Shown: positions 9,905 through 48,353, counted from the first letter of the stretch. The stretch is 62,182 bases of DNA from Candidatus Woesebacteria bacterium RIFCSPLOWO2_01_FULL_39_61 (GCA_001793155.1 MGHI01000029.1:1-62182), one strand, 5' to 3'. Translations and numbers: made by a program. The notes: generated by a model from the letters alone, not told the origin.

Positions 9905-11517
9905 ATTTTTAAATCTGTATCTTTGAACAAGATCAGCGGAATTCTACCTTCGAGTAAAATTACCCCATTCTTTTGGTCGAGTTCTTTTTGTATTTTCAGA
10001 CTCAATTCTTCTCTATCGTTTGAAAAAACAAGCTTATTTGAATTAACTCCCAAGCCTTTTTTAAAACTCGTTAAAGCATCTGGATTGGTTAGAAACACCT
10101 TTTCAACTGAATTCGACATCATCTTAGCCAACCTTTCGTGTATTTCATCAGATTTTGCTCCCAGCTCTATTATTCCGCTGGTTATAACCACCTTTCTTTT
10201 ATCTTTAAAAAGACTCAAATATTCCAAAGCAGATTCAAATGCCCGTGGAGTAGAATTATGGGTATCGTCAATCAGTATTACCCCTGATTCAAGTTTGCTA
10301 ACACTCATAGTTTTTTCGGGTAATTTAATATTCCCGCAGGCTTTTTTAATATCCTTCCACGAAACCTTAAATAGTCTAGCAACTAAAATTGCGGCAGTTA
10401 TATTTTCGATAAAATGTAAACCGGTAAGCGATGTCTTAATTGTCTTTTCATCTTCATTAAAGTGAACTTTAATTTTGATAGAATGCGTATCTGCGGAGAT
10501 TACTCTGGAAACAATGTCTGCATCTTTAAACCTATTATCCTTCTTTTCTCTGGCCACATAGTAGCCCAAGACCTTAACATGTGTTGAAAGTTCACGAGCT
10601 CTTTCGGCTAACTCCAGGCAATACGCGTTAGATAAATTGAAAATAGCAATCCCGTCCGGAGGAAGTGCTTCAATTAACTCAAATTTTGTTTTTTTTATAT
10701 TCTCCAGATTTCCGAATAAGGATAAATGTTGCTCTTCTATACCGGTAATTATTGCTACCGAAGGTTTGACGATAGCCGTCAGCTTTTTGATCTCTCCCTG
10801 CTTATATGCACCCATCTCCGCGACAAAAAATTCTGTACTCTTTTCCAGAAAGTCTCTAATTTTTCTTGCAATCCCAAATTCTGTATTTTCGTTTCCCGTC
10901 GTTTTTAATACCTCATATTTCTTGGATAATATCTGCGCTACAAATTCTTTTGTCGAGCTTTTACCATAGCTTCCGGTTATCCCTATTACGATTGGTGACA
11001 CTTTCGAAATTTTCTCTTTAGCAATTTTGATTTCCTCGCTTTTAATTTTTTGCACAATAGGTTGTGTCCACAACACCCCTGCAAAAGGTGAAATGACCAA
11101 CAAGATTTCCGCAAAGATAAAATGCAACGTTCCCAGCTCCCCCGTTATAAAACCGAACATGGGCGGTAAAAGTGCTATTAATAATGCCGTTATAAATATT
11201 CTTTTTGCCCGTTGAGTGAAAACCGGCTTCCTGAGTGTTTCTTTCTTAATGTCTATTAATACACTTAAATCAAAAAGGGTAAAAAGTAAAATTAGGGCAT
11301 TTTGCGACTCTCTTAAAATTAAGGCTAAAATTAATGTAGCTATCTTAAAAACTATTATATTCACCTCGGTATTGTTTCTACCGCTTATCGAAGAAAAAAA
11401 TAACCTAAATCTGTCAAAACGATATTCTTTAATCTGAATCCAGTAGATCCAAATTAATAGCTGGCGTATTGCCTGAGGTAACCAGAAAATTACTAGTATT
11501 ATAGATTTTTGAACCAT
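9901..11517 (-). CDS. murF: MurF ligase with N-terminal membrane segments
   Basis: GITGSYGKSSTKE P-loop, NTEFGI, EMGAY, IDDTHNSTP, GIIELG; hydrophobic first ~150 aa. Confidence 0.93.
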   Translation of the reverse strand: MVQKSIILVIFWLPQAIRQLLIWIYWIQIKEYRFDRFRLFFSSISGRNNTEVNIIVFKIATLILALILRESQNALILLFTLFDLSVLIDIKKETLRKPVFTQRAKRIFITALLIALLPPMFGFITGELGTLHFIFAEILLVISPFAGVLWTQPIVQKIKSEEIKIAKEKISKVSPIVIGITGSYGKSSTKEFVAQILSKKYEVLKTTGNENTEFGIARKIRDFLEKSTEFFVAEMGAYKQGEIKKLTAIVKPSVAIITGIEEQHLSLFGNLENIKKTKFELIEALPPDGIAIFNLSNAYCLELAERARELSTHVKVLGYYVAREKKDNRFKDADIVSRVISADTHSIKIKVHFNEDEKTIKTSLTGLHFIENITAAILVARLFKVSWKDIKKACGNIKLPEKTMSVSKLESGVILIDDTHNSTPRAFESALEYLSLFKDKRKVVITSGIIELGAKSDEIHERLAKMMSNSVEKVFLTNPDALTSFKKGLGVNSNKLVFSNDREELSLKIQKELDQKNGVILLEGRIPLILFKDTDLKI

Positions 11518-12209
11518 AGGTCGGTTTCTTCTGCAATTACTTTAGGTTTGTTATAAGGAAGTCTGTGTCCCTCGTCCTCAAATAATACAATTTTCGAATT
11601 TTTAATAGATTCGTTAATAAATCGGGCATCTCCCATCGGAGTAACTCTATCGATTTTTCCCCATAAAATTAGAGTCGGTGTTGAAATTTGTTTAATTTGC
11701 GGCTTTAAATCCTCTGAAATCACTTTTTTAAATATATCTTTCATAATACCTTCTGTTTTTTCATAGTCATGTTCCCTTGCTGCTTTATATAAAAGCCTCC
11801 GAAAAGAACCCGCTAATACCGGAACCAATAAAAATACTTTTCCCGTTTTAGCCAAGGCACTAAACAATAATCTTTTTAATAATTTTCCCCGGGAAACACC
11901 ACGCGACGCACAAAGGATTATCCCAGAAAGTCCTTTGCACTTTCTATAGGCCAACTTAATAGCTATTCCTCCTCCGAAGGAGTGGCCAAATACGAAAAAG
12001 TTTTCGTTTTTAAACGCATTCCTTGCTTCCGAATAAACGTACTCAGAATACTCTTTTATTCCCCAAACTTTATCGGGTGGAGGATTTTCAAAACCAGCGA
12101 GCTTAGGAAGTAATACACTCCAACCTCTTTTTTCAAGTTCATCTTTTAGAGGCTTCAGTTTTTTTGTTTCAGCACCCCAACCGTGTAGAAGTACGATATT
12201 TTTTCGCAT
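11499..12209 (-). CDS. Alpha/beta hydrolase
   Basis: LLHGWG oxyanion motif, GHSFGG nucleophile elbow, LWGKID acid, GH catalytic His. Confidence 0.92.
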   Translation of the reverse strand: MRKNIVLLHGWGAETKKLKPLKDELEKRGWSVLLPKLAGFENPPPDKVWGIKEYSEYVYSEARNAFKNENFFVFGHSFGGGIAIKLAYRKCKGLSGIILCASRGVSRGKLLKRLLFSALAKTGKVFLLVPVLAGSFRRLLYKAAREHDYEKTEGIMKDIFKKVISEDLKPQIKQISTPTLILWGKIDRVTPMGDARFINESIKNSKIVLFEDEGHRLPYNKPKVIAEETDLWFKNL

Positions 12210-26763: not shown

Positions 26764-27999
26764 ATGACTAGAATTTTCTTTCCTTCTCAAGCAGTCATAC
26801 TTGCTGCCGGTATAAATTCAAGATTCGTTCCCTTCAACTCAAGAAACTATCATAAGAGTAACTTTCTTTTAATGGGTGAACCGATTATTCGGCAAACGGT
26901 TGGGGTTCTAAAAAAAGCGGGGATCAAAGAAGTGGTTGTTATTACATCTCCAAAAGATAAGATGACGAAAAAATCCCTTGAAAATTTAGGCGGTAAAGGG
27001 ATTGGGTTAGATTTTTATACTCAAAAACAACCACTAGGAATGGCATCTGCCTTATTGGGAGTTAAACGTTACCTACATGACAAATTTTTGGTTATCAATC
27101 CCCAACAGATTAACATTGATACTCACCTTTCTCGATTGAAAAATATTAAGACTCTTTCAAAAAATACTGTTTGTCTTTTTTCTCAATCTACGGACCAACC
27201 CCAAAAGTATGGCATTTTGGGGCTAAAGGGTAAGAGAGTTACAAAAGTTGTTGAAAAACCAGCTAATCTGTCCGGACTTTCAAACCAAAGAATACTCGGG
27301 GTCTACATTCTTAACTCAGATTTCATGGACTTAATGGGAAATTTTAATATAACAGAATACCTGTTGGAGGAAGCGCTAAATAAATATGCTTCCCAAGGCG
27401 AAGTTATCGCCATTAGAAGTGATCATCCCGCCCTATCTTTAAAATACGCTTGGGATCTTTTTTCTATAGCAAATTATAAATTCTCCCAATTCCCACAAAC
27501 TCCGAAAGTTCACAAAAAGGCCTGGGTTCATCCAACAGCCATAATTTCAGGACCAGTGGTTATAGAAAATGGCGCAAAAATTTACGAATACACTCTTATC
27601 CAAGGCCCTTGTTATATAGGTAAAAACTGCCTAGTAGGTAGTTTCTGTAAAATTAGGAAAGAAACGGTCCTCGAAGAAGACACAGAGTTACAAAACAGTG
27701 TTGAGATCAAACATTCTATCATTGGTGCGAAAACACATATTCACTCTGGATTTATAGGCGACTCAATAATTGGTGAAAACTGCCGAATAGGTGCCGGATT
27801 TATTACGGCCAACAGGAGACTTGATCGAGACAATATTCGAGTTTTGATAAAAGATAGACTGGTGGACGTGGGCACGTCCTTCGGAAGCGTAATCGGAGAT
27901 AATGTTAAAATTGGTATCCATTGTGGTACAAACCCAGGTACAGTCATTGCCAGTAACTCGTTAGTTTTACCCATGACTCTTATTTCTCATCAGAAGTGA
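26764..27999 (+). CDS. Bifunctional sugar-1-phosphate nucleotidyltransferase / left-handed beta-helix acetyltransferase (archaeal-type GlmU-like)
   Basis: VILAAGINSRF, QPLGMA, YGIL, VEKP, followed by hexapeptide repeats, GFITANRRLD and NPGT. Confidence 0.88.
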   Translation: MTRIFFPSQAVILAAGINSRFVPFNSRNYHKSNFLLMGEPIIRQTVGVLKKAGIKEVVVITSPKDKMTKKSLENLGGKGIGLDFYTQKQPLGMASALLGVKRYLHDKFLVINPQQINIDTHLSRLKNIKTLSKNTVCLFSQSTDQPQKYGILGLKGKRVTKVVEKPANLSGLSNQRILGVYILNSDFMDLMGNFNITEYLLEEALNKYASQGEVIAIRSDHPALSLKYAWDLFSIANYKFSQFPQTPKVHKKAWVHPTAIISGPVVIENGAKIYEYTLIQGPCYIGKNCLVGSFCKIRKETVLEEDTELQNSVEIKHSIIGAKTHIHSGFIGDSIIGENCRIGAGFITANRRLDRDNIRVLIKDRLVDVGTSFGSVIGDNVKIGIHCGTNPGTVIASNSLVLPMTLISHQK

Positions 28000-43038: not shown

Positions 43039-44175
43039 TTATAGATGGCTACTCATATTCTTTTCAACTAAATTTTCAAATTCTTTCTTGAACCTTTCTT
43101 TGGAAAACCTTTGCGCATTTTTAACACATTCTTGGCTCATTTCACTTCGTTGATTCGAATCATCATAGTATTTAAGAGCTTTTATTAAACTTTCTTTTGT
43201 TTGCATACTGAAAAAAGTACCAGTTTTTCCTTCAATTACAGTATCCAGTGCGCCTCCTTTCTTGTAAGCAATCACCGGACAACCCATTGCTTGAGCTTCG
43301 ACCGCAACCATTCCGAAATCTTCTGCTTGAGGAAATATCAGAGCTTTTGCGTTTATGTAATAACCCACCAAGTCCTCATCCCCAACCAGCCCAAAAAACC
43401 TTATATTTTCTTTGGCCTGTGACTTTAATCTTTTCTCTTCACTCCCAATTCCTACTATAATCAGAGGCAACCTCAGTTCATTAAAAGCTTCAACGGCCAA
43501 ATCAACTCTTTTGTAGGGTACTAACCTGCTGACAATTAAGTAGTAATTTTTACGATCGTAGGCTGAATTCATTTTTAATTTTTGATTTGTATTTTTGATA
43601 TTTGATATTTGATTTTTGATAGTATTAACGTCTACAGGGGGATAGATCAATTCAGATTCTCTCTCGTAATATTTTTTAATCCTATTTTGAACCTCAGTCG
43701 AAATACCAACCATTACATCCGGTCTTTGCGCGGCAATTTTGTCCCAGTATCTTAAATAACTTACGACGGGTTTTGTTACTTGCAAGGACGGACCTTTAAA
43801 GTAGGAGTTATAGTGACTCCAAAGATACCGAGTTGGCGTAAGACAATAACAAATATGCAAAGTTGGCGGTTTGGTAATTACTCCTTTTGCAGCTTCAGAA
43901 GTAACTGAAATAACAAGGTCGTAACCTGTGAAATCAAACGTCTCAAAAGCAATCGGCATTAAATACGGAATTAATTGATTTCTTGTTCTAAGATACTTGA
44001 TTTTATTCAAAAAGCTCGTTGTAACTTCTGAAAAACTTGCTGCCCAAGTGGCTTTTTCTGGAGAGTAAACTGAAGTGAATAAAGGTGCATCAGGAAACAT
44101 TTCATGGAGCGCCAAAAGTACTCTTTCCGCTCCGCCCCACTTATTCACCCTGTCGTAAACAATTGCTGTTTTCAT
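43039..44175 (-). CDS. GT4 glycosyltransferase
   Basis: GGAERVL, CLTPTRYLW, VSRLVPYKR, EDFGMVAVEAQAMG. Confidence 0.95.
   Translation of the reverse strand: MKTAIVYDRVNKWGGAERVLLALHEMFPDAPLFTSVYSPEKATWAASFSEVTTSFLNKIKYLRTRNQLIPYLMPIAFETFDFTGYDLVISVTSEAAKGVITKPPTLHICYCLTPTRYLWSHYNSYFKGPSLQVTKPVVSYLRYWDKIAAQRPDVMVGISTEVQNRIKKYYERESELIYPPVDVNTIKNQISNIKNTNQKLKMNSAYDRKNYYLIVSRLVPYKRVDLAVEAFNELRLPLIIVGIGSEEKRLKSQAKENIRFFGLVGDEDLVGYYINAKALIFPQAEDFGMVAVEAQAMGCPVIAYKKGGALDTVIEGKTGTFFSMQTKESLIKALKYYDDSNQRSEMSQECVKNAQRFSKERFKKEFENLVEKNMSSHL
43571..43620 (-). repeat. Degenerate heptamer tandem repeat read in frame in a GT4
   Basis: Minus strand ATCAAAA-ATCAAAT-ATCAAAT-ATCAAAA-ATACAAA-TCAAAAA-TTAAAAAT; encodes IKNQISNIKNTNQKLK. 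Confidence 0.75.
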
Positions 44176-44729
44176 CTAAATAATTCAGGAGCTTTAAGCT
44201 GAGCAAGTTTTATGAAAGTTATTGTATCTGAAGCTTTAATCTCCCCACTTCTTATCTTCTCATCCACCCGCTTTACAGGTATACGTAAAACCTGTAAATC
44301 TTCGTTTTCGTCAAACCTTTGTGTATGTCTGATATCAATATCTCTTGCTAGGTACCCGTAAACTTTAAAAGTATCTTTTGATGGTTCTCCATAAATAGTT
44401 CCCAGATGAAATAATTGTTTTACGTGATATCCAGTTTCCTCTTCTAATTCATTTTTTGCCACCTCTTCCGGATTATGTCCAGTTTTAATTCTTCCGGCAG
44501 GTAGTTCGATAATGATATCTCCTGCTCCGTGCTTATATTGCCTAACGAAAACTATTTCTCCCTTCTTTGTTATGGGAACTATCATTGCCACGTCACCGAC
44601 TTTGGAAAGAAAATAATCATCAACTATCCTTCCGTTTGGGAGTTTAACTTTGTGTTTGAAAAGCGGAAACCAAGGGCTCGGGGAAATATCTATCTCTTCC
44701 AACAGTTTCCATTTTTTAATTTTTCTCAT
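44172..44729 (-). CDS. NUDIX hydrolase (ADP-ribose/NDP-sugar pyrophosphatase-like)
   Basis: RQYK, Nudix box ELPAG-x5-E-x7-ELEEETGY, FDENED. Confidence 0.93.
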   Translation of the reverse strand: MRKIKKWKLLEEIDISPSPWFPLFKHKVKLPNGRIVDDYFLSKVGDVAMIVPITKKGEIVFVRQYKHGAGDIIIELPAGRIKTGHNPEEVAKNELEEETGYHVKQLFHLGTIYGEPSKDTFKVYGYLARDIDIRHTQRFDENEDLQVLRIPVKRVDEKIRSGEIKASDTITFIKLAQLKAPELFR

Positions 44730-45627
44730 TATTTAATTTTCTCACTACTCCATTATCGGCATCAACTTCAACCAAATCCCCGTTCTTAAAAAATTCAGTT
44801 GCAATCTGTGTTCCTACAATGCAGGGAATTCCTAATTCACGGGCTAAAATTGCCGCGTGACTGAGCATTCCCCCCTGATCGGTAACGATAGCGCTTATTT
44901 TGGGTAGCAAAGTAGTAATCATTGGTGACGTCATTTTCGTAACGAGGATACAACTTTCGCTGATTTTGTTTACAGTATTCATATCGGATATTAAAGCGAC
45001 TTTACCCAAGGCCTTACCCTTACTTGCGGAGATTCCACGGATACTTTCGGGGCTGGTTTGTTTTATTAATTTGCTGGCCTTTTTGGCAGCATAATATTTA
45101 TCAAGAAGTTCTCGAAATTCATTCAGAGTGTTCTCTTCCTTCTTTAGAGACAGAGCCCTAATCATATCTTTAATGTAGTATATGTCTTTATCCAGCCTTT
45201 CTACCCCGAACCCTTCGCGCGTACTTAACGAGAGAAGTTTTTCAAATTCCCTGATCGCTCCAGTCGGTTTTTGAACTCTTATTTTTATTCCATTAGGAAG
45301 TTTATATAAAAGATATTTACCGTCTTTGGCTTCATAATCCATCTCTTCGGCGAGATTAATATCAAAATCGAATCCGGTTTTTTCGATAAATTCTTCAAAA
45401 CTATTTCTGTAGACGGTTCCATGGGGCGGATGTATTTCTACCCCCTCCTCTATTTTCCAGGGAATTTTCATTTTCCTAACCAGAATATTGAAATGACCGT
45501 ATCTTATTTTGACCCGATAGCCTAAAAGTTTATAGGCATATTGGGAAACCAGAATCCAGTCAGTCGGATGTATTCTCCAGCTTTGCAAAAGTTTTTCCAG
45601 TTCTACTAAAACATTTTCAACTTTCAT
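44716..45627 (-). CDS. Unknown N-terminal domain fused to a PEP-utiliser phospho-histidine swivel domain
   Basis: C-terminal ~100 aa: GISASKG, ILVTKMT, TDQGGMLSHAAILARELGIPCIVG, VDADNG; N-terminal ~190 aa unrecognised. Confidence 0.85.
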   Translation of the reverse strand: MKVENVLVELEKLLQSWRIHPTDWILVSQYAYKLLGYRVKIRYGHFNILVRKMKIPWKIEEGVEIHPPHGTVYRNSFEEFIEKTGFDFDINLAEEMDYEAKDGKYLLYKLPNGIKIRVQKPTGAIREFEKLLSLSTREGFGVERLDKDIYYIKDMIRALSLKKEENTLNEFRELLDKYYAAKKASKLIKQTSPESIRGISASKGKALGKVALISDMNTVNKISESCILVTKMTSPMITTLLPKISAIVTDQGGMLSHAAILARELGIPCIVGTQIATEFFKNGDLVEVDADNGVVRKLNNEKN

Positions 45628-47074
45628 TCTTGTTTAATTTCCTAGCAATACCCTCATATGCATTTAATTCTACTAAGTCTCCATCTTTAAATACCTTTGT
45701 AGCAATCTTTGTTCCAACAATACAGGGTTTACCAAACTCCCTCGATATTATCGCTGCGTGCGAAAGCATGCCTCCAAAATCGGTAATAATTCCTGAAGCC
45801 TTAATAATCGCGGGAGTAAACTCTGGTCTTGTCATCGGAGAAACGATGATATCGCCTATTCTGACTTTTTTAACTTCATTAACATAAAATATTATTTTGG
45901 CCTTACCAGTTGCTCTCCCCCTACTTGCTACTGTCCCTTGGACAGCTGTTTCTTTAATTACTTTTTCTTTTGTTTTCTCAACATTTAATCCTGAATATAG
46001 TTGTAGTTTTCCGTTTTCTAAAATTAACGCGTAATCTTCTTTACGTCGCTTAATTTCCCTTTTGTCGACCTCCTCAAGCCCCTTCAATATTCGTTGAATT
46101 TCATCCCCAGTTAAATAAACTAAATCATTCACAGCAATATTAACTCTTCTCGCAATTTCACTAAGTAAAGGAAAGGTTTTGTAATGTGCCAAGAAAAATA
46201 CATCGAGTCTATATGTTTGCAAGTAAATAAACTCCCGTGCAAAATCTATTAGCCTTAAAACTTTCGCTGATTTCTCTATCTTATTATATGCGAGTCGAAA
46301 ATCCTTTCTAGTCCTTTTTAAAATCTTCTCTCGCTCTTTTAGTCTTTTACCAGGATCTTCCTTAACTAAATCATCAACTTTTTGTCTAACATCTCCCTCT
46401 GTTTGAAAGTCTCCTAAATATGAAATTGAACTCATCCAAGCATATTGTTTTAAATGTTTTTGAATCGCACCAGCGATGTCATTATTTTTATTTCTTTGCA
46501 ACTCCAATGCCATTTTCAAAAGGCTTTCAGTTTCTTTTACAAAGAAGTTCTTCTTTTTGGGAATAACTAATTTGCTTAGTAAAATATCTTGGTCTTCCCC
46601 TTTAGCTATACCCAGCTCGCTGACGAAAAGTTGGGTTATTTCCTTTTTAAGAATGCCATCTAAAACGAGTATTGTATCAAGGAAGGGAATTAGAGCTAAA
46701 ACCCTTTTTTGATAATCTAGATACAAAGAAAGCAAATCTTCATTCGAGGCAAGAGTAAAACTCCCGCTGCCAAGCTTTTTAGAAGTTTCTAAAAGTTGGT
46801 TAGAAAACTTGTAACAACGAGAGGTGTACTTTTCGAGATAATCTGTGTTATATCGAAGTTTATTTCTAAGAATACTCTCAATCTTTTCTGTCTCATTTAG
46901 TTCAATCGATATTTCACCTGAAACAATTTTTTTATTTTTGTAAGTAAATTCTAAACCTAATGCACGAGGAGTTTCTTCTAAGCTGCCCTTAATCCAATAC
47001 CACTGAAATAGAAGTGAGCCTTTAATTTTCACAATCGGCTGCCAACGAATTTTTCGGTTTAACATAAAATGCAC
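45617..47074 (-). CDS. Large helical domain fused to a PEP-utiliser phospho-histidine swivel domain
   Basis: C-terminal GTVASRG, VSPMTRPE, TDFGGMLSHAAIISREFGKPCIVG; no ATP-grasp or TIM-barrel motifs recognised. Confidence 0.85.
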   Translation of the reverse strand: MHFMLNRKIRWQPIVKIKGSLLFQWYWIKGSLEETPRALGLEFTYKNKKIVSGEISIELNETEKIESILRNKLRYNTDYLEKYTSRCYKFSNQLLETSKKLGSGSFTLASNEDLLSLYLDYQKRVLALIPFLDTILVLDGILKKEITQLFVSELGIAKGEDQDILLSKLVIPKKKNFFVKETESLLKMALELQRNKNNDIAGAIQKHLKQYAWMSSISYLGDFQTEGDVRQKVDDLVKEDPGKRLKEREKILKRTRKDFRLAYNKIEKSAKVLRLIDFAREFIYLQTYRLDVFFLAHYKTFPLLSEIARRVNIAVNDLVYLTGDEIQRILKGLEEVDKREIKRRKEDYALILENGKLQLYSGLNVEKTKEKVIKETAVQGTVASRGRATGKAKIIFYVNEVKKVRIGDIIVSPMTRPEFTPAIIKASGIITDFGGMLSHAAIISREFGKPCIVGTKIATKVFKDGDLVELNAYEGIARKLNKNES

Positions 47075-47097
47075 ATATCTATTAAGGTAACAGGCAC

Positions 47098-47132
47098 GAA
47101 GCTATTCCACCCGTCGGGTGGAATACATTCAC
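47098..47132 (+). mobile_element. Isolated hairpin resembling an IS200/IS605 terminal palindrome
   Basis: GAAGC-TATTCCACCCG-T-CGGGTGGAATA-CATTCAC; the 11-bp arms are perfect. Family resemblance is from recall of IS605-type ends. Confidence 0.5.
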
Positions 47133-47137
47133 ACCTT

Positions 47138-48307
47138 TTACTTTTTTTCTAAAACCTGCTTGTAAACTTCCAATGTTTCCTTCGCCATTTTTTGCCACGA
47201 ATATCTTTTTATGAATCTCTGGGATTCTGAAATCTTTCGATTTCTGTCTTTCTGAGTCATGCCTTTAACTTTTAACATCAGTTCAGAGATATTTCCGGCA
47301 ATATTCGGATCAAAATAAAAAGCGTTGTGCCCATAGATTTCTCTAAAAACTGGGATATCCGAGGCTAAAACCAAGGTACCTGCAGCCATGGCTTCCAAAC
47401 CCTGCAAGCCAAACCCCTCTTCCTTAGATGGGTAAACAAAAGCGATTGCATTTTTGTATAACGAAAATAAATCTTCATCAGGAATATATCCTAATAGTTT
47501 TACGTATTTTTCTGCCCCAAGCCTTTTAATCTCTTCAGCCAATCTCTTTTTAAATACGCCCCTGCTTCCTGCTATTGTAAACATTACTTTTTCTTTACTT
47601 TGGCTATTCAATAAAACAATAGCTTCGACGGTCTTCTTCAAGTTTTTGTGAGGATAAGCATTTCCTACATACAAAAAATAAGGCTTTGAAATATCGTATT
47701 TCTCTATTAATTTATAACTTTGCTTGCCCCTCGAAGCTTTAGCGAAGTGGGGGGAATTTGAAATTCCGCCCAAGGCGGTTACTCCTTCGTAACTAACCGT
47801 TACCTTTTTCGAACTGATTGAATAATAATTTTCGACGTCTTTCTTTACAAATTCACTTGGGACTACTATTTTCATCGCCCTTTTCACGGCGGATCTGGCT
47901 ATGAGTAAAAAAGGAATTCTTTTAAAGAAATAAAGCGCTAAAGGCAAACTCGTTGCATCGGTTCCCTGTTTTTGCATGATCAAATCATGAACAGTCAAAA
48001 CAAATTTTCCTCTCCACAAAATCGGAACGTTGAGGTGGGGAAAATGCACCAAGTCGGGTTCCTCCTTATCAATTATTTCCGGAAGTTTAAACTGCTCTTC
48101 AAAGGTGTAGTGTCTGAAGTCAGCCTCAACCTTTTTCCAGTTTGGAGGCAACTCCAATTCATTGAAGTACTTCTTTCGTAATAAAACAATAAACTGTTCT
48201 TTTTTACCTAATTGGCTTAGACCCTCGATTAAGTTGATAAGATATCTCCCGATCCCGGCGTTCTCCAAGCCGTACATCCTCGCGTCGATTAAAATTCTTT
48301 TGGCCAT
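47138..48307 (-). CDS. GT4 glycosyltransferase
   Basis: IDARMY, GIGRY, TVHDL, YVGNAYPHKN, EGFGLQGLEAM, SDIPVFREI. Confidence 0.95.
   Translation of the reverse strand: MAKRILIDARMYGLENAGIGRYLINLIEGLSQLGKKEQFIVLLRKKYFNELELPPNWKKVEADFRHYTFEEQFKLPEIIDKEEPDLVHFPHLNVPILWRGKFVLTVHDLIMQKQGTDATSLPLALYFFKRIPFLLIARSAVKRAMKIVVPSEFVKKDVENYYSISSKKVTVSYEGVTALGGISNSPHFAKASRGKQSYKLIEKYDISKPYFLYVGNAYPHKNLKKTVEAIVLLNSQSKEKVMFTIAGSRGVFKKRLAEEIKRLGAEKYVKLLGYIPDEDLFSLYKNAIAFVYPSKEEGFGLQGLEAMAAGTLVLASDIPVFREIYGHNAFYFDPNIAGNISELMLKVKGMTQKDRNRKISESQRFIKRYSWQKMAKETLEVYKQVLEKK
47726..47767 (-). repeat. REP-like palindromic insert read in frame in a GT4
   Basis: Minus strand GGAATTTCAAATTCC (15-bp palindrome) then CCCC-ACTTCG-CTAAAG-CTTCG-AGGGGC; encodes ISNSPHFAKASRGK. 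Confidence 0.7.
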
Positions 48308-48314
48308 AATTCTT

Positions 48315-48353
48315 AAGCTTTGCTTACCGAGTCTAACTCGGCCAAGCTTTGCT
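48315..48353. repeat. REP-like composite palindromic element, copy 2
   Basis: Reverse complement AGCAAAGCTTGGCCGAGTTAGACTCGGTAAGCAAAGCTT, one mismatch to 6473-6511. Confidence 0.9.

Follow-up and report, generated by a model that had tools for sequence, protein, structure and literature searches.

What do two proteins that each end in a phospho-histidine swivel domain, and that carry neither an ATP-grasp domain nor a pyruvate-binding barrel, do between two glycosyltransferase genes of a glycan locus? The question is raised by a 62,182-nucleotide (nt) stretch of Candidatus Woesebacteria bacterium RIFCSPLOWO2_01_FULL_39_61 (GCA_001793155.1 MGHI01000029.1:1-62182; at its full length, the window), in which genes A and B and a NUDIX gene separate two genes for glycosyltransferases of family GT4 (Table 1). 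A preliminary description made from the sequence alone had proposed a split phosphotransfer relay. Our analysis agrees in that A and B are separate, conserved swivel-histidine proteins lacking both the ATP-grasp and the barrel, and hence parts of a split phosphotransfer system. We give roughly an even chance to a more specific reading, in which both are acceptor-plus-swivel modules of a split dikinase of the rifampin phosphotransferase (RPH) type that are charged in trans, with B as the core element of the glycan locus and A as an accessory.

The evidence begins with the domain content. PF00391, the swivel family, was the only Pfam family found in either protein, covering residues 407-475 of A (E 5e-23) and 223-293 of B (E 6.5e-27). 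The TDxGGMLSH motif is intact at the C-terminus of both, as had been claimed, reading T431-DFGGMLS-H439 in A and T249-DQGGMLS-H257 in B. Both histidines are invariant in their family alignments (H439 across 40 homologues of A, H257 across 33 homologues of B), and the swivel of A is about 50% identical to that of the phosphoenolpyruvate (PEP) synthase 8a8e. Pfam detected neither the ATP-grasp domain PF01326 nor the PEP-utilizers_C barrel in A or B. Compared with the architecture of PEP synthase and pyruvate phosphate dikinase (PPDK), which combines an ATP-grasp, a swivel and a PEP/pyruvate TIM barrel, the two proteins match in the swivel alone. NCBIfam models for PEP synthase, PPDK, RPH, PigC/RedH and PtsI all matched the C-terminal parts of A and B far below their cut-offs. 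The models for PtsI, enzyme I of the phosphotransferase system (PTS), covered about 50-90 swivel residues at 28-45 bits against cut-offs of 342-824, leaving the HPr-binding helical subdomain and the C-terminal PEP-binding barrel of that enzyme unmatched, and the RPH models gave 48-88 bits against 999-1700 (for A, 87.6 bits against 999 with NF041857 and 68.6 bits against 1700 with NF000283). No defence-system match for A or B was returned by PADLOC.

The three genes are laid out as first described, overlapping one another between the two GT4 genes. Read from the sequence, the overlap of A and B is 11 nt long (ATGAAAGTTGA), that of B and the NUDIX gene is 14 nt long, and the stop codon of the NUDIX gene is coupled to the start codon of the downstream GT4 gene in the tetranucleotide ATGA. 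At least 24 contigs, assembled independently from metagenomes, encode an identical B protein and keep the order A-B-NUDIX, so the arrangement is not an assembly or frameshift artefact. The same recurrence bears on the idea that A and B are decayed remnants or, as the preliminary description had allowed for, pieces of one frameshifted gene resembling PEP synthase. Such an origin would account for the absence of two of the three PEP synthase domains from each protein. It is nevertheless scarcely credible, since each open reading frame (ORF) ends in its own complete swivel with invariant catalytic residues, numerous full-length homologues have the same lengths, and the N-terminus of B coincides with those of its homologues.

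The N-terminal region of A, A_N, had no Pfam match even at E <= 10, and the single-sequence AlphaFold2 model of A was unusable (predicted local distance difference test score, pLDDT, 33), leaving sequence profiles as the sole basis of its assignment. BLASTP aligned residues 7-475 of A with residues 321-803 of P0212 (30% identity, E 3e-53), a protein of 809 amino acids (aa) in which PPDK_N (14-317) is joined to a central domain and a swivel. With hhalign, the A_N family profile aligned with the central domains of P0212, P0222 and P0239 over 354 columns (probability 100%, E 9e-42), and a profile of 40 A homologues aligned at positions 194-481 with residues 565-866 of Listeria RPH (5fbs). Judged by these three alignments, A consists of the same acceptor domain and swivel as an RPH-type dikinase, lacks only the ATP-grasp, and is not new in kind. 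Two earlier statements need to be narrowed as a result. The absence of any resemblance to PEP synthase or PPDK is correct for the ATP-grasp and the barrel and incorrect for A_N, an ordinary acceptor domain of RPH-type dikinases, and the description of both N-terminal regions as novel acceptor domains stands for B and falls for A, whose N-domain is homologous along those 354 columns to the centre of three-domain dikinases.

The N-terminal region of B, B_N, gave a different picture. It had no Pfam match at E <= 10, and its profile matched only designed helical proteins among PDB sequences, on the helical hairpin only. Profile comparison with hhalign found no similarity of B_N to A_N or to PPDK_N, which rules out a diverged A-type acceptor domain and a cut-down ATP-grasp as identities for this domain. 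An AlphaFold2 model of B built from a 33-sequence alignment (pLDDT 87.5) consists of an alpha/beta domain, a helical hairpin and the swivel. Foldseek was run with this whole model, in which the swivel dominates the matches; the top PDB matches (RPH, the C-domain of pyruvate kinase, enzyme I and PPDK) are all explained by the hairpin plus the swivel. When 1.84 billion representative proteins were searched exhaustively with the profile, only 140 B_N clusters were recovered, which comprised 63 with B_N plus a swivel, 47 with stand-alone B_N (150-245 aa) and 25 fragments, the rest including fusions. Conserved positions in B_N are W17, W24, G36, Y37, P56-W57 and P67-P68, together with a polar set of H45, N/D47 and D/H89. 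Separately, P0351, a 4256-aa protein with RHS-repeat, lectin and dockerin segments, gave five weak matches to positions 79-146 of the B_N profile (E 9e-8 overall); the segment is possibly a repeated beta-rich one and is probably not homologous to B_N.

The order of helices and strands in the B model, alpha-beta-alpha-beta...alpha-beta, is compatible with the core of Pol-beta-type nucleotidyltransferases, which carries hG[GS] and [DE]x[DE] motifs and a third carboxylate, and H45-x-N/D47 and D/H89 occupy candidate positions for the motifs of that fold, although the canonical DxD carboxylates are not conserved (N47 and L49 in the window). The B_N region also matched phage nucleotidyltransferase-like and LicD proteins in the viral library of Foldseek, non-significantly (E 0.1-1.7). 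The model is thus reminiscent of a nucleotidyltransferase-type fold, a lead and not a finding. Were this lead correct, B could charge itself: B_N would bind a nucleotide and load the histidine of its own swivel, and the phosphate would be relayed to the swivel or the acceptor site of A, a two-protein relay like that of the preliminary description, so that no ATP-grasp would be needed. That none was found close to B, either in the window or in most relatives, fits this proposal, as do the alpha-beta order, the polar residues on consecutive strands and the weak nucleotidyltransferase matches. In the PTS and in DhaM, domains of the PF00391 type also pass phosphate from histidine to histidine. We nonetheless regard self-charging as improbable. 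The motif carboxylates are not conserved and the fold itself rests on non-significant matches, B occurs without A, and the 47 stand-alone clusters have B_N with no swivel to load.

Fusion proteins argue in the same direction. The architecture [B_N][swivel][A_N][swivel] was found in P0171, P0202 and P0292, which are DPANN-type proteins, and [B_N][A_N...] in P0254. P0244 (900 aa) and P0249, a truncated protein related to it, have the order [PPDK_N][B_N][~355 aa][swivel], so that B_N follows a true ATP-grasp and takes the position of an acceptor domain. This points to an acceptor-side or accessory domain and not to a substitute for ATP binding; a self-charging B_N would be redundant behind a complete ATP-grasp. 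The stretch of P0244 between B_N and the swivel aligned with A_N too weakly for homology to be claimed (hhalign E 0.006, probability 6%). Since the adjacency of A and B recurs with different A-type paralogues and fusions exist, the two proteins are functionally linked. A self-contained relay from A to B is not indicated, given that relatives carry B without A, that orthologues of A lie outside glycan loci and that P0244 combines an ATP-grasp with B_N.

The position of the genes in relatives distinguishes B from its neighbours. The conserved locus order is Wzy_C, PMT_2, GT4, GT2, GT4, the insert, GT4, NTP_transferase (ManC-like), Bac_transf (a phosphoglycosyl transferase, PGT), DUF4012 and RecO, and the slot between the two GT4 genes (43039-48307 in the window, and in the syntenic loci L001, L005, L010 and L011) is variable in everything except B (Table 1). 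B was present in every syntenic or related locus examined. In L003, a non-syntenic Patescibacteria locus, B occurs singly, flanked by genes for a GT2/GtrA protein, PMT-family enzymes and RmlC/RmlD. B is therefore the constant element of the insert, and its link with glycan genes is seen in two independent contexts. The closest syntenic genome is Candidatus Woesebacteria RIFCSPHIGHO2_01_FULL_39_32, and the homologues carry Woesebacteria or Patescibacteria names; a locus search with a narrow B_N alignment returned only 2 loci in 185,579 species genomes. One of the syntenic loci, L011 (CAZVJU010000004.1), is titled 'uncultured Gammaproteobacteria bacterium', and its 20 kb follow the Woesebacteria locus gene for gene, the encoded proteins being 53-77% identical; this bin is probably mislabelled or contaminated.

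The same comparison allows the view that A is a kinase of small molecules, xenobiotic or antibiotic-like, that has nothing to do with the glycan, and that the gap between the GT4 genes is an insertion hot spot whose contents do not form a single system. Orthologues of A (48-52% identity) adjoin genes for hydrolases, a GNAT protein, EamA transporters and MacB-type ABC efflux systems, A and B lie on different contigs in GCA_964593425.1, the content of the insert differs between close relatives, and the closest characterised relatives of A phosphorylate rifampin or phenolics. Against this view, the overlapping stop and start codons that run from A through B and NUDIX into the GT4 gene indicate co-translation in one operon, and A-type and B-type modules are adjacent or fused repeatedly in unrelated lineages. 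On balance we consider an unrelated A rather unlikely.

Where, then, would the phosphate come from? No ATP-grasp was found in the window by tblastn with five ATP-grasp queries, and nine further independent neighbourhoods likewise yielded none at distances up to about 10 kb from a homologue of B or A; among the neighbourhoods compared, the sole match to these queries was P0244 itself. A weak tblastn match at 26950-27162 was rejected, as it lies in a GlmU-like NTP-transferase/hexapeptide protein. Elsewhere, stand-alone PPDK_N proteins are very common in the Candidate Phyla Radiation (CPR), with 4267 matches of 144-441 aa and with Daviesbacteria, Nomurabacteria, Saccharimonadia and Falkowbacteria among their names. 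Two loci (L020:3993-6744 and L023:4115-6744) share a conserved CPR operon in which a gene for an HD phosphohydrolase (190 aa) is followed by one for an A-type module (437 or 477 aa) and then by one for a 247-aa stand-alone ATP-grasp. In L026 a swivel module, a B-type module and a HAD phosphatase follow one another, and a 314-aa stand-alone ATP-grasp lies 3 kb from the B-type module. The two 247-aa copies are closely similar by eye and about 65 residues shorter than the 314-aa form. Split 'water dikinase' systems of the RPH type are common in CPR bacteria and DPANN archaea. Because stand-alone ATP-grasps are so frequent in the CPR and occur beside A-type and B-type modules, charging in trans is the best-supported model; for the host organism the ATP-grasp is an assumption.

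Under this model we infer the following course of events. A separately encoded ATP-grasp, outside the window, would use ATP to phosphorylate or pyrophosphorylate His439 in A and His257 in B, and each swivel would swing back to its own N-terminal domain and hand the phosphate to a bound acceptor. The acceptor of B would most likely be a sugar, a nucleotide-sugar or a lipid-linked glycan intermediate of a Wzy/PGT-type pathway, as suggested by the retention of B between the same two GT4 genes of the conserved Woesebacteria locus. A, a module of the HpeH/PpsA type, would be an accessory that came to be placed beside B in this lineage, and the NUDIX protein would fill a recurrent slot for a phosphohydrolase partner, probably hydrolysing a compound like a nucleoside diphosphate (NDP) sugar.

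An ATP-independent course may also be considered, in which A and B act as transphosphorylases that move phosphate between metabolites or glycan intermediates through a phosphohistidine while the adjacent hydrolase pulls the equilibrium. Even when its ATP-grasp partner is absent, HpeH can take phosphate off a phosphorylated product and transfer it to a different substrate (PMC12167813), and both the lack of a local ATP-grasp and the recurrence of a hydrolase partner would suit such an activity. The reaction of HpeH is a side reaction with no known physiological precedent in the family, however, and the stand-alone ATP-grasps that are widespread in the CPR are operon-linked to A-type or B-type modules elsewhere. 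We regard transphosphorylation by A and B as improbable.

Several observations weigh against the trans-charged modules that we prefer. No ATP-grasp gene was found in the window or in the nine other neighbourhoods. The surroundings of the A orthologues are not glycan genes, so the acceptor of A may be unrelated to glycan. Neither the distant B-type module of L026 nor the stand-alone B_N protein of L008 lies in a glycan locus.

The NUDIX protein is, by sequence, a probable member of the ADP-ribose/NDP-sugar pyrophosphatase family. Its PDB sequence matches over about 160 residues range from E 1e-19 to 1e-9 and include Ndx2 (2yvm, E 1e-19), NudF and the GDP-mannose pyrophosphatase NudK; the NCBIfam models NudE, NudK and YffH/AdpP match below their equivalog cut-offs. 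It resembles Ndx2, NudF, NudE and NudK in a predicted Nudix fold, its PF00293 match exceeding the Pfam cut-off, and in the ELEEETG core, and differs from them in the box itself (44430-44495, GRIKTGHNPEEVAKNELEEETG), which reads GX5HX7NELEEETG and thus has His for the first conserved Glu and Asn for the conserved Arg of GX5EX7REUXEEXGU. Phosphohydrolases recur beside the modules, with NUDIX in the window and L011, HAD in L026 and HD in L020 and L023; in L005 the neighbour of B is a 270-aa protein in which an RHA motif can be made out by eye. This recurrence suggests a functional slot and, since other hydrolases take the place of NUDIX in relatives, a generic partner rather than a specific nucleotide-processing step. 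The colanic acid cluster of E. coli carries a gene for a GDP-mannose hydrolase, and by analogy a simpler alternative is that the NUDIX protein regulates the precursor pool of the neighbouring ManC-like enzyme.

The principle of a split dikinase is already known. HpeHI, CreHI and PpsAB are experimentally characterised two-component dikinases in which the ATP-grasp is a separate protein (PMC12167813). Like HpeH, CreH and PpsA, A combines a helical acceptor domain of the RPH type with a C-terminal swivel bearing the motif T/SxxGGxxxH, in a chain that has no ATP-grasp (PMC12167813), and weak NCBIfam matches to PRK08296-type models cover its C-terminus. Unlike these proteins, whose partners HpeI, CreI and PpsB are encoded next to them (PMC12167813), A has no adjacent ATP-grasp gene. 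It is also shorter (485 aa against about 600-640 aa), and outside the swivel its similarity to them is detectable only via CPR three-domain relatives and part of RPH. The contexts differ as well, with a glycan locus here and aromatic catabolism there, where B has no counterpart.

In RPH a swivel histidine carries phosphate from the ATP-grasp site to the acceptor site (PMC4844700). Residues 565-866 of the Listeria enzyme RPH-Lm (5fbs, 5fbt, 5hv1; PMC4844700), with which the A profile aligned, are the C-terminal part of the rifampin-binding domain plus the swivel, and RPH was the best Foldseek match of the B model; the difference is that RPH has all its domains, an N-terminal ATP-grasp included, in a single chain, and that A and B lack the ATP-grasp. 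The nearest functional analogy for a module in a glycan locus is the alpha-glucan water dikinase (GWD) GWD1, a swivel-histidine dikinase that phosphorylates a polysaccharide directly (PMC13553574), and some relatives have weak matches to PF22973 (GWD1_pHisD). GWD, however, is one large chain that carries CBM45 domains and, at its C-terminus, a domain that binds nucleotide; both are absent here, and no sequence similarity extends outside the His domain. Two further kinases, both PPDK/PEP-synthase-like, link this chemistry to glycosylation. Cj1418, the L-glutamine kinase of Campylobacter capsule phosphoramidate synthesis, supplies a phosphorylated small molecule for glycan decoration, and TalE works with the glycosyltransferase TalC, glycosylation taking place on the phosphate (PMC6482885). 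Both are described with ATP-binding domains, and similarity of A or B to either was not detected beyond the swivel.

A bolder extension, which we put forward as a tentative possibility, would make B a new phosphotransferase of a glycan pathway, a bacterial functional counterpart of plant GWD that phosphorylates a sugar, a nucleotide-sugar or a lipid-linked oligosaccharide of the Woesebacteria envelope glycan, with a shared ATP-grasp 'hub' and an obligatory phosphohydrolase partner. B_N would bind the acceptor so that the phosphohistidine swivel could reach it. The shared ATP-grasp would charge B in trans and also serve A-type modules, and the phosphohydrolase (NUDIX here, HAD, HD or another hydrolase elsewhere) would complete a cycle of phosphorylation and processing. 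Among the papers searched, none describes ATP-grasp-less swivel modules of the CPR, a split dikinase with no ATP-grasp gene next to it, B_N or its fixed position in a glycan operon. CPR organisms have tiny genomes and yet keep many such modules, and the fixed address of B in a conserved surface-glycan operon narrows the search for a substrate further than the anonymous arrays that are the usual case. Should B indeed phosphorylate a glycan intermediate, it would represent a new enzyme class in bacterial glycan decoration, and the domain of about 140 protein clusters would gain a function. Two-component dikinases would be extended from one-to-one to one-to-many partnerships if unlinked modules are served by the same ATP-grasp.

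Table 1. Features of the locus in the window and content of the corresponding insert in related loci.
Feature	Position	Strand	Description
Upstream GT4 glycosyltransferase	47138..48307	minus	PF00534/PF13439; 5' border of the variable insert; syntenic in L001, L005, L010, L011
Gene A	45617..47074	minus	ORF; 485 aa from GTG, 482 aa from ATG at 47065 (start chosen by gene callers)
A_N, residues 1-365	45980..47074	minus	Helical central (acceptor-binding) domain of small-molecule dikinases, by hhalign
A swivel, residues 366-485	45620..45979	minus	PF00391; predicted phospho-carrier His439, codon 45758-45760
Gene B	44716..45627	minus	ORF, 303 aa
B_N, residues 1-190	45058..45627	minus	Alpha/beta domain (about 1-135) and helical hairpin (144-185); no described family matched
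B swivel, residues 191-303	44719..45057	minus	PF00391; predicted phospho-carrier His257, codon 44857-44859
NUDIX gene	44172..44729	minus	ORF, 185 aa; PF00293, E 1.6e-11
Downstream GT4 glycosyltransferase	43039..44175	minus	PF00534; 3' border of the insert; syntenic in relatives
Insert, window			A, B, NUDIX
Insert, L011			B, NUDIX (66% identical), DedA/VTT membrane protein, S41 peptidase
Insert, L001/L010			Split A-type paralogue (167 + 307 aa), 83-aa ORF, B, a further A-type protein of 485 aa with 28% identity to A
Insert, L005/L006			270-aa protein without Pfam match, B

Other features of the inserts are of interest in their own right. The A-type paralogue of L001 (6218-7673) and L010 (8203-9673) is encoded in two ORFs, one of 167-172 aa that corresponds to residues 5-155 of A and one of 307 aa that corresponds to residues 187-485; as it occurs in two independent assemblies, it is either a genuine split or a conserved frameshift. 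The 270-aa protein of L005 (7187-7999) is encoded directly upstream of B, is represented by two ORFs in L006 and has no Pfam or PDB sequence match. By eye, its segments 'VVVLRHADEE' and 'IVTHN' resemble the histidine-phosphatase (PGAM) superfamily. In L011 the B-NUDIX pair is followed by a membrane protein of the DedA/VTT family (11502-12146). Members of this family are implicated in the recycling of undecaprenyl-phosphate, and the neighbour hints at a link to lipid-carrier chemistry.

The 63-nt spacer between the stop codon of the upstream GT4 gene and the start of A contains a perfect 11-bp inverted repeat (47103-47125, minus strand, TATTCCACCCG-A-CGGGTGGAATA). No T-run follows the repeat, which sets it apart from typical intrinsic terminators; a relation to the GC-rich palindromic elements at 47726-47767 and 48315-48353 is possible.

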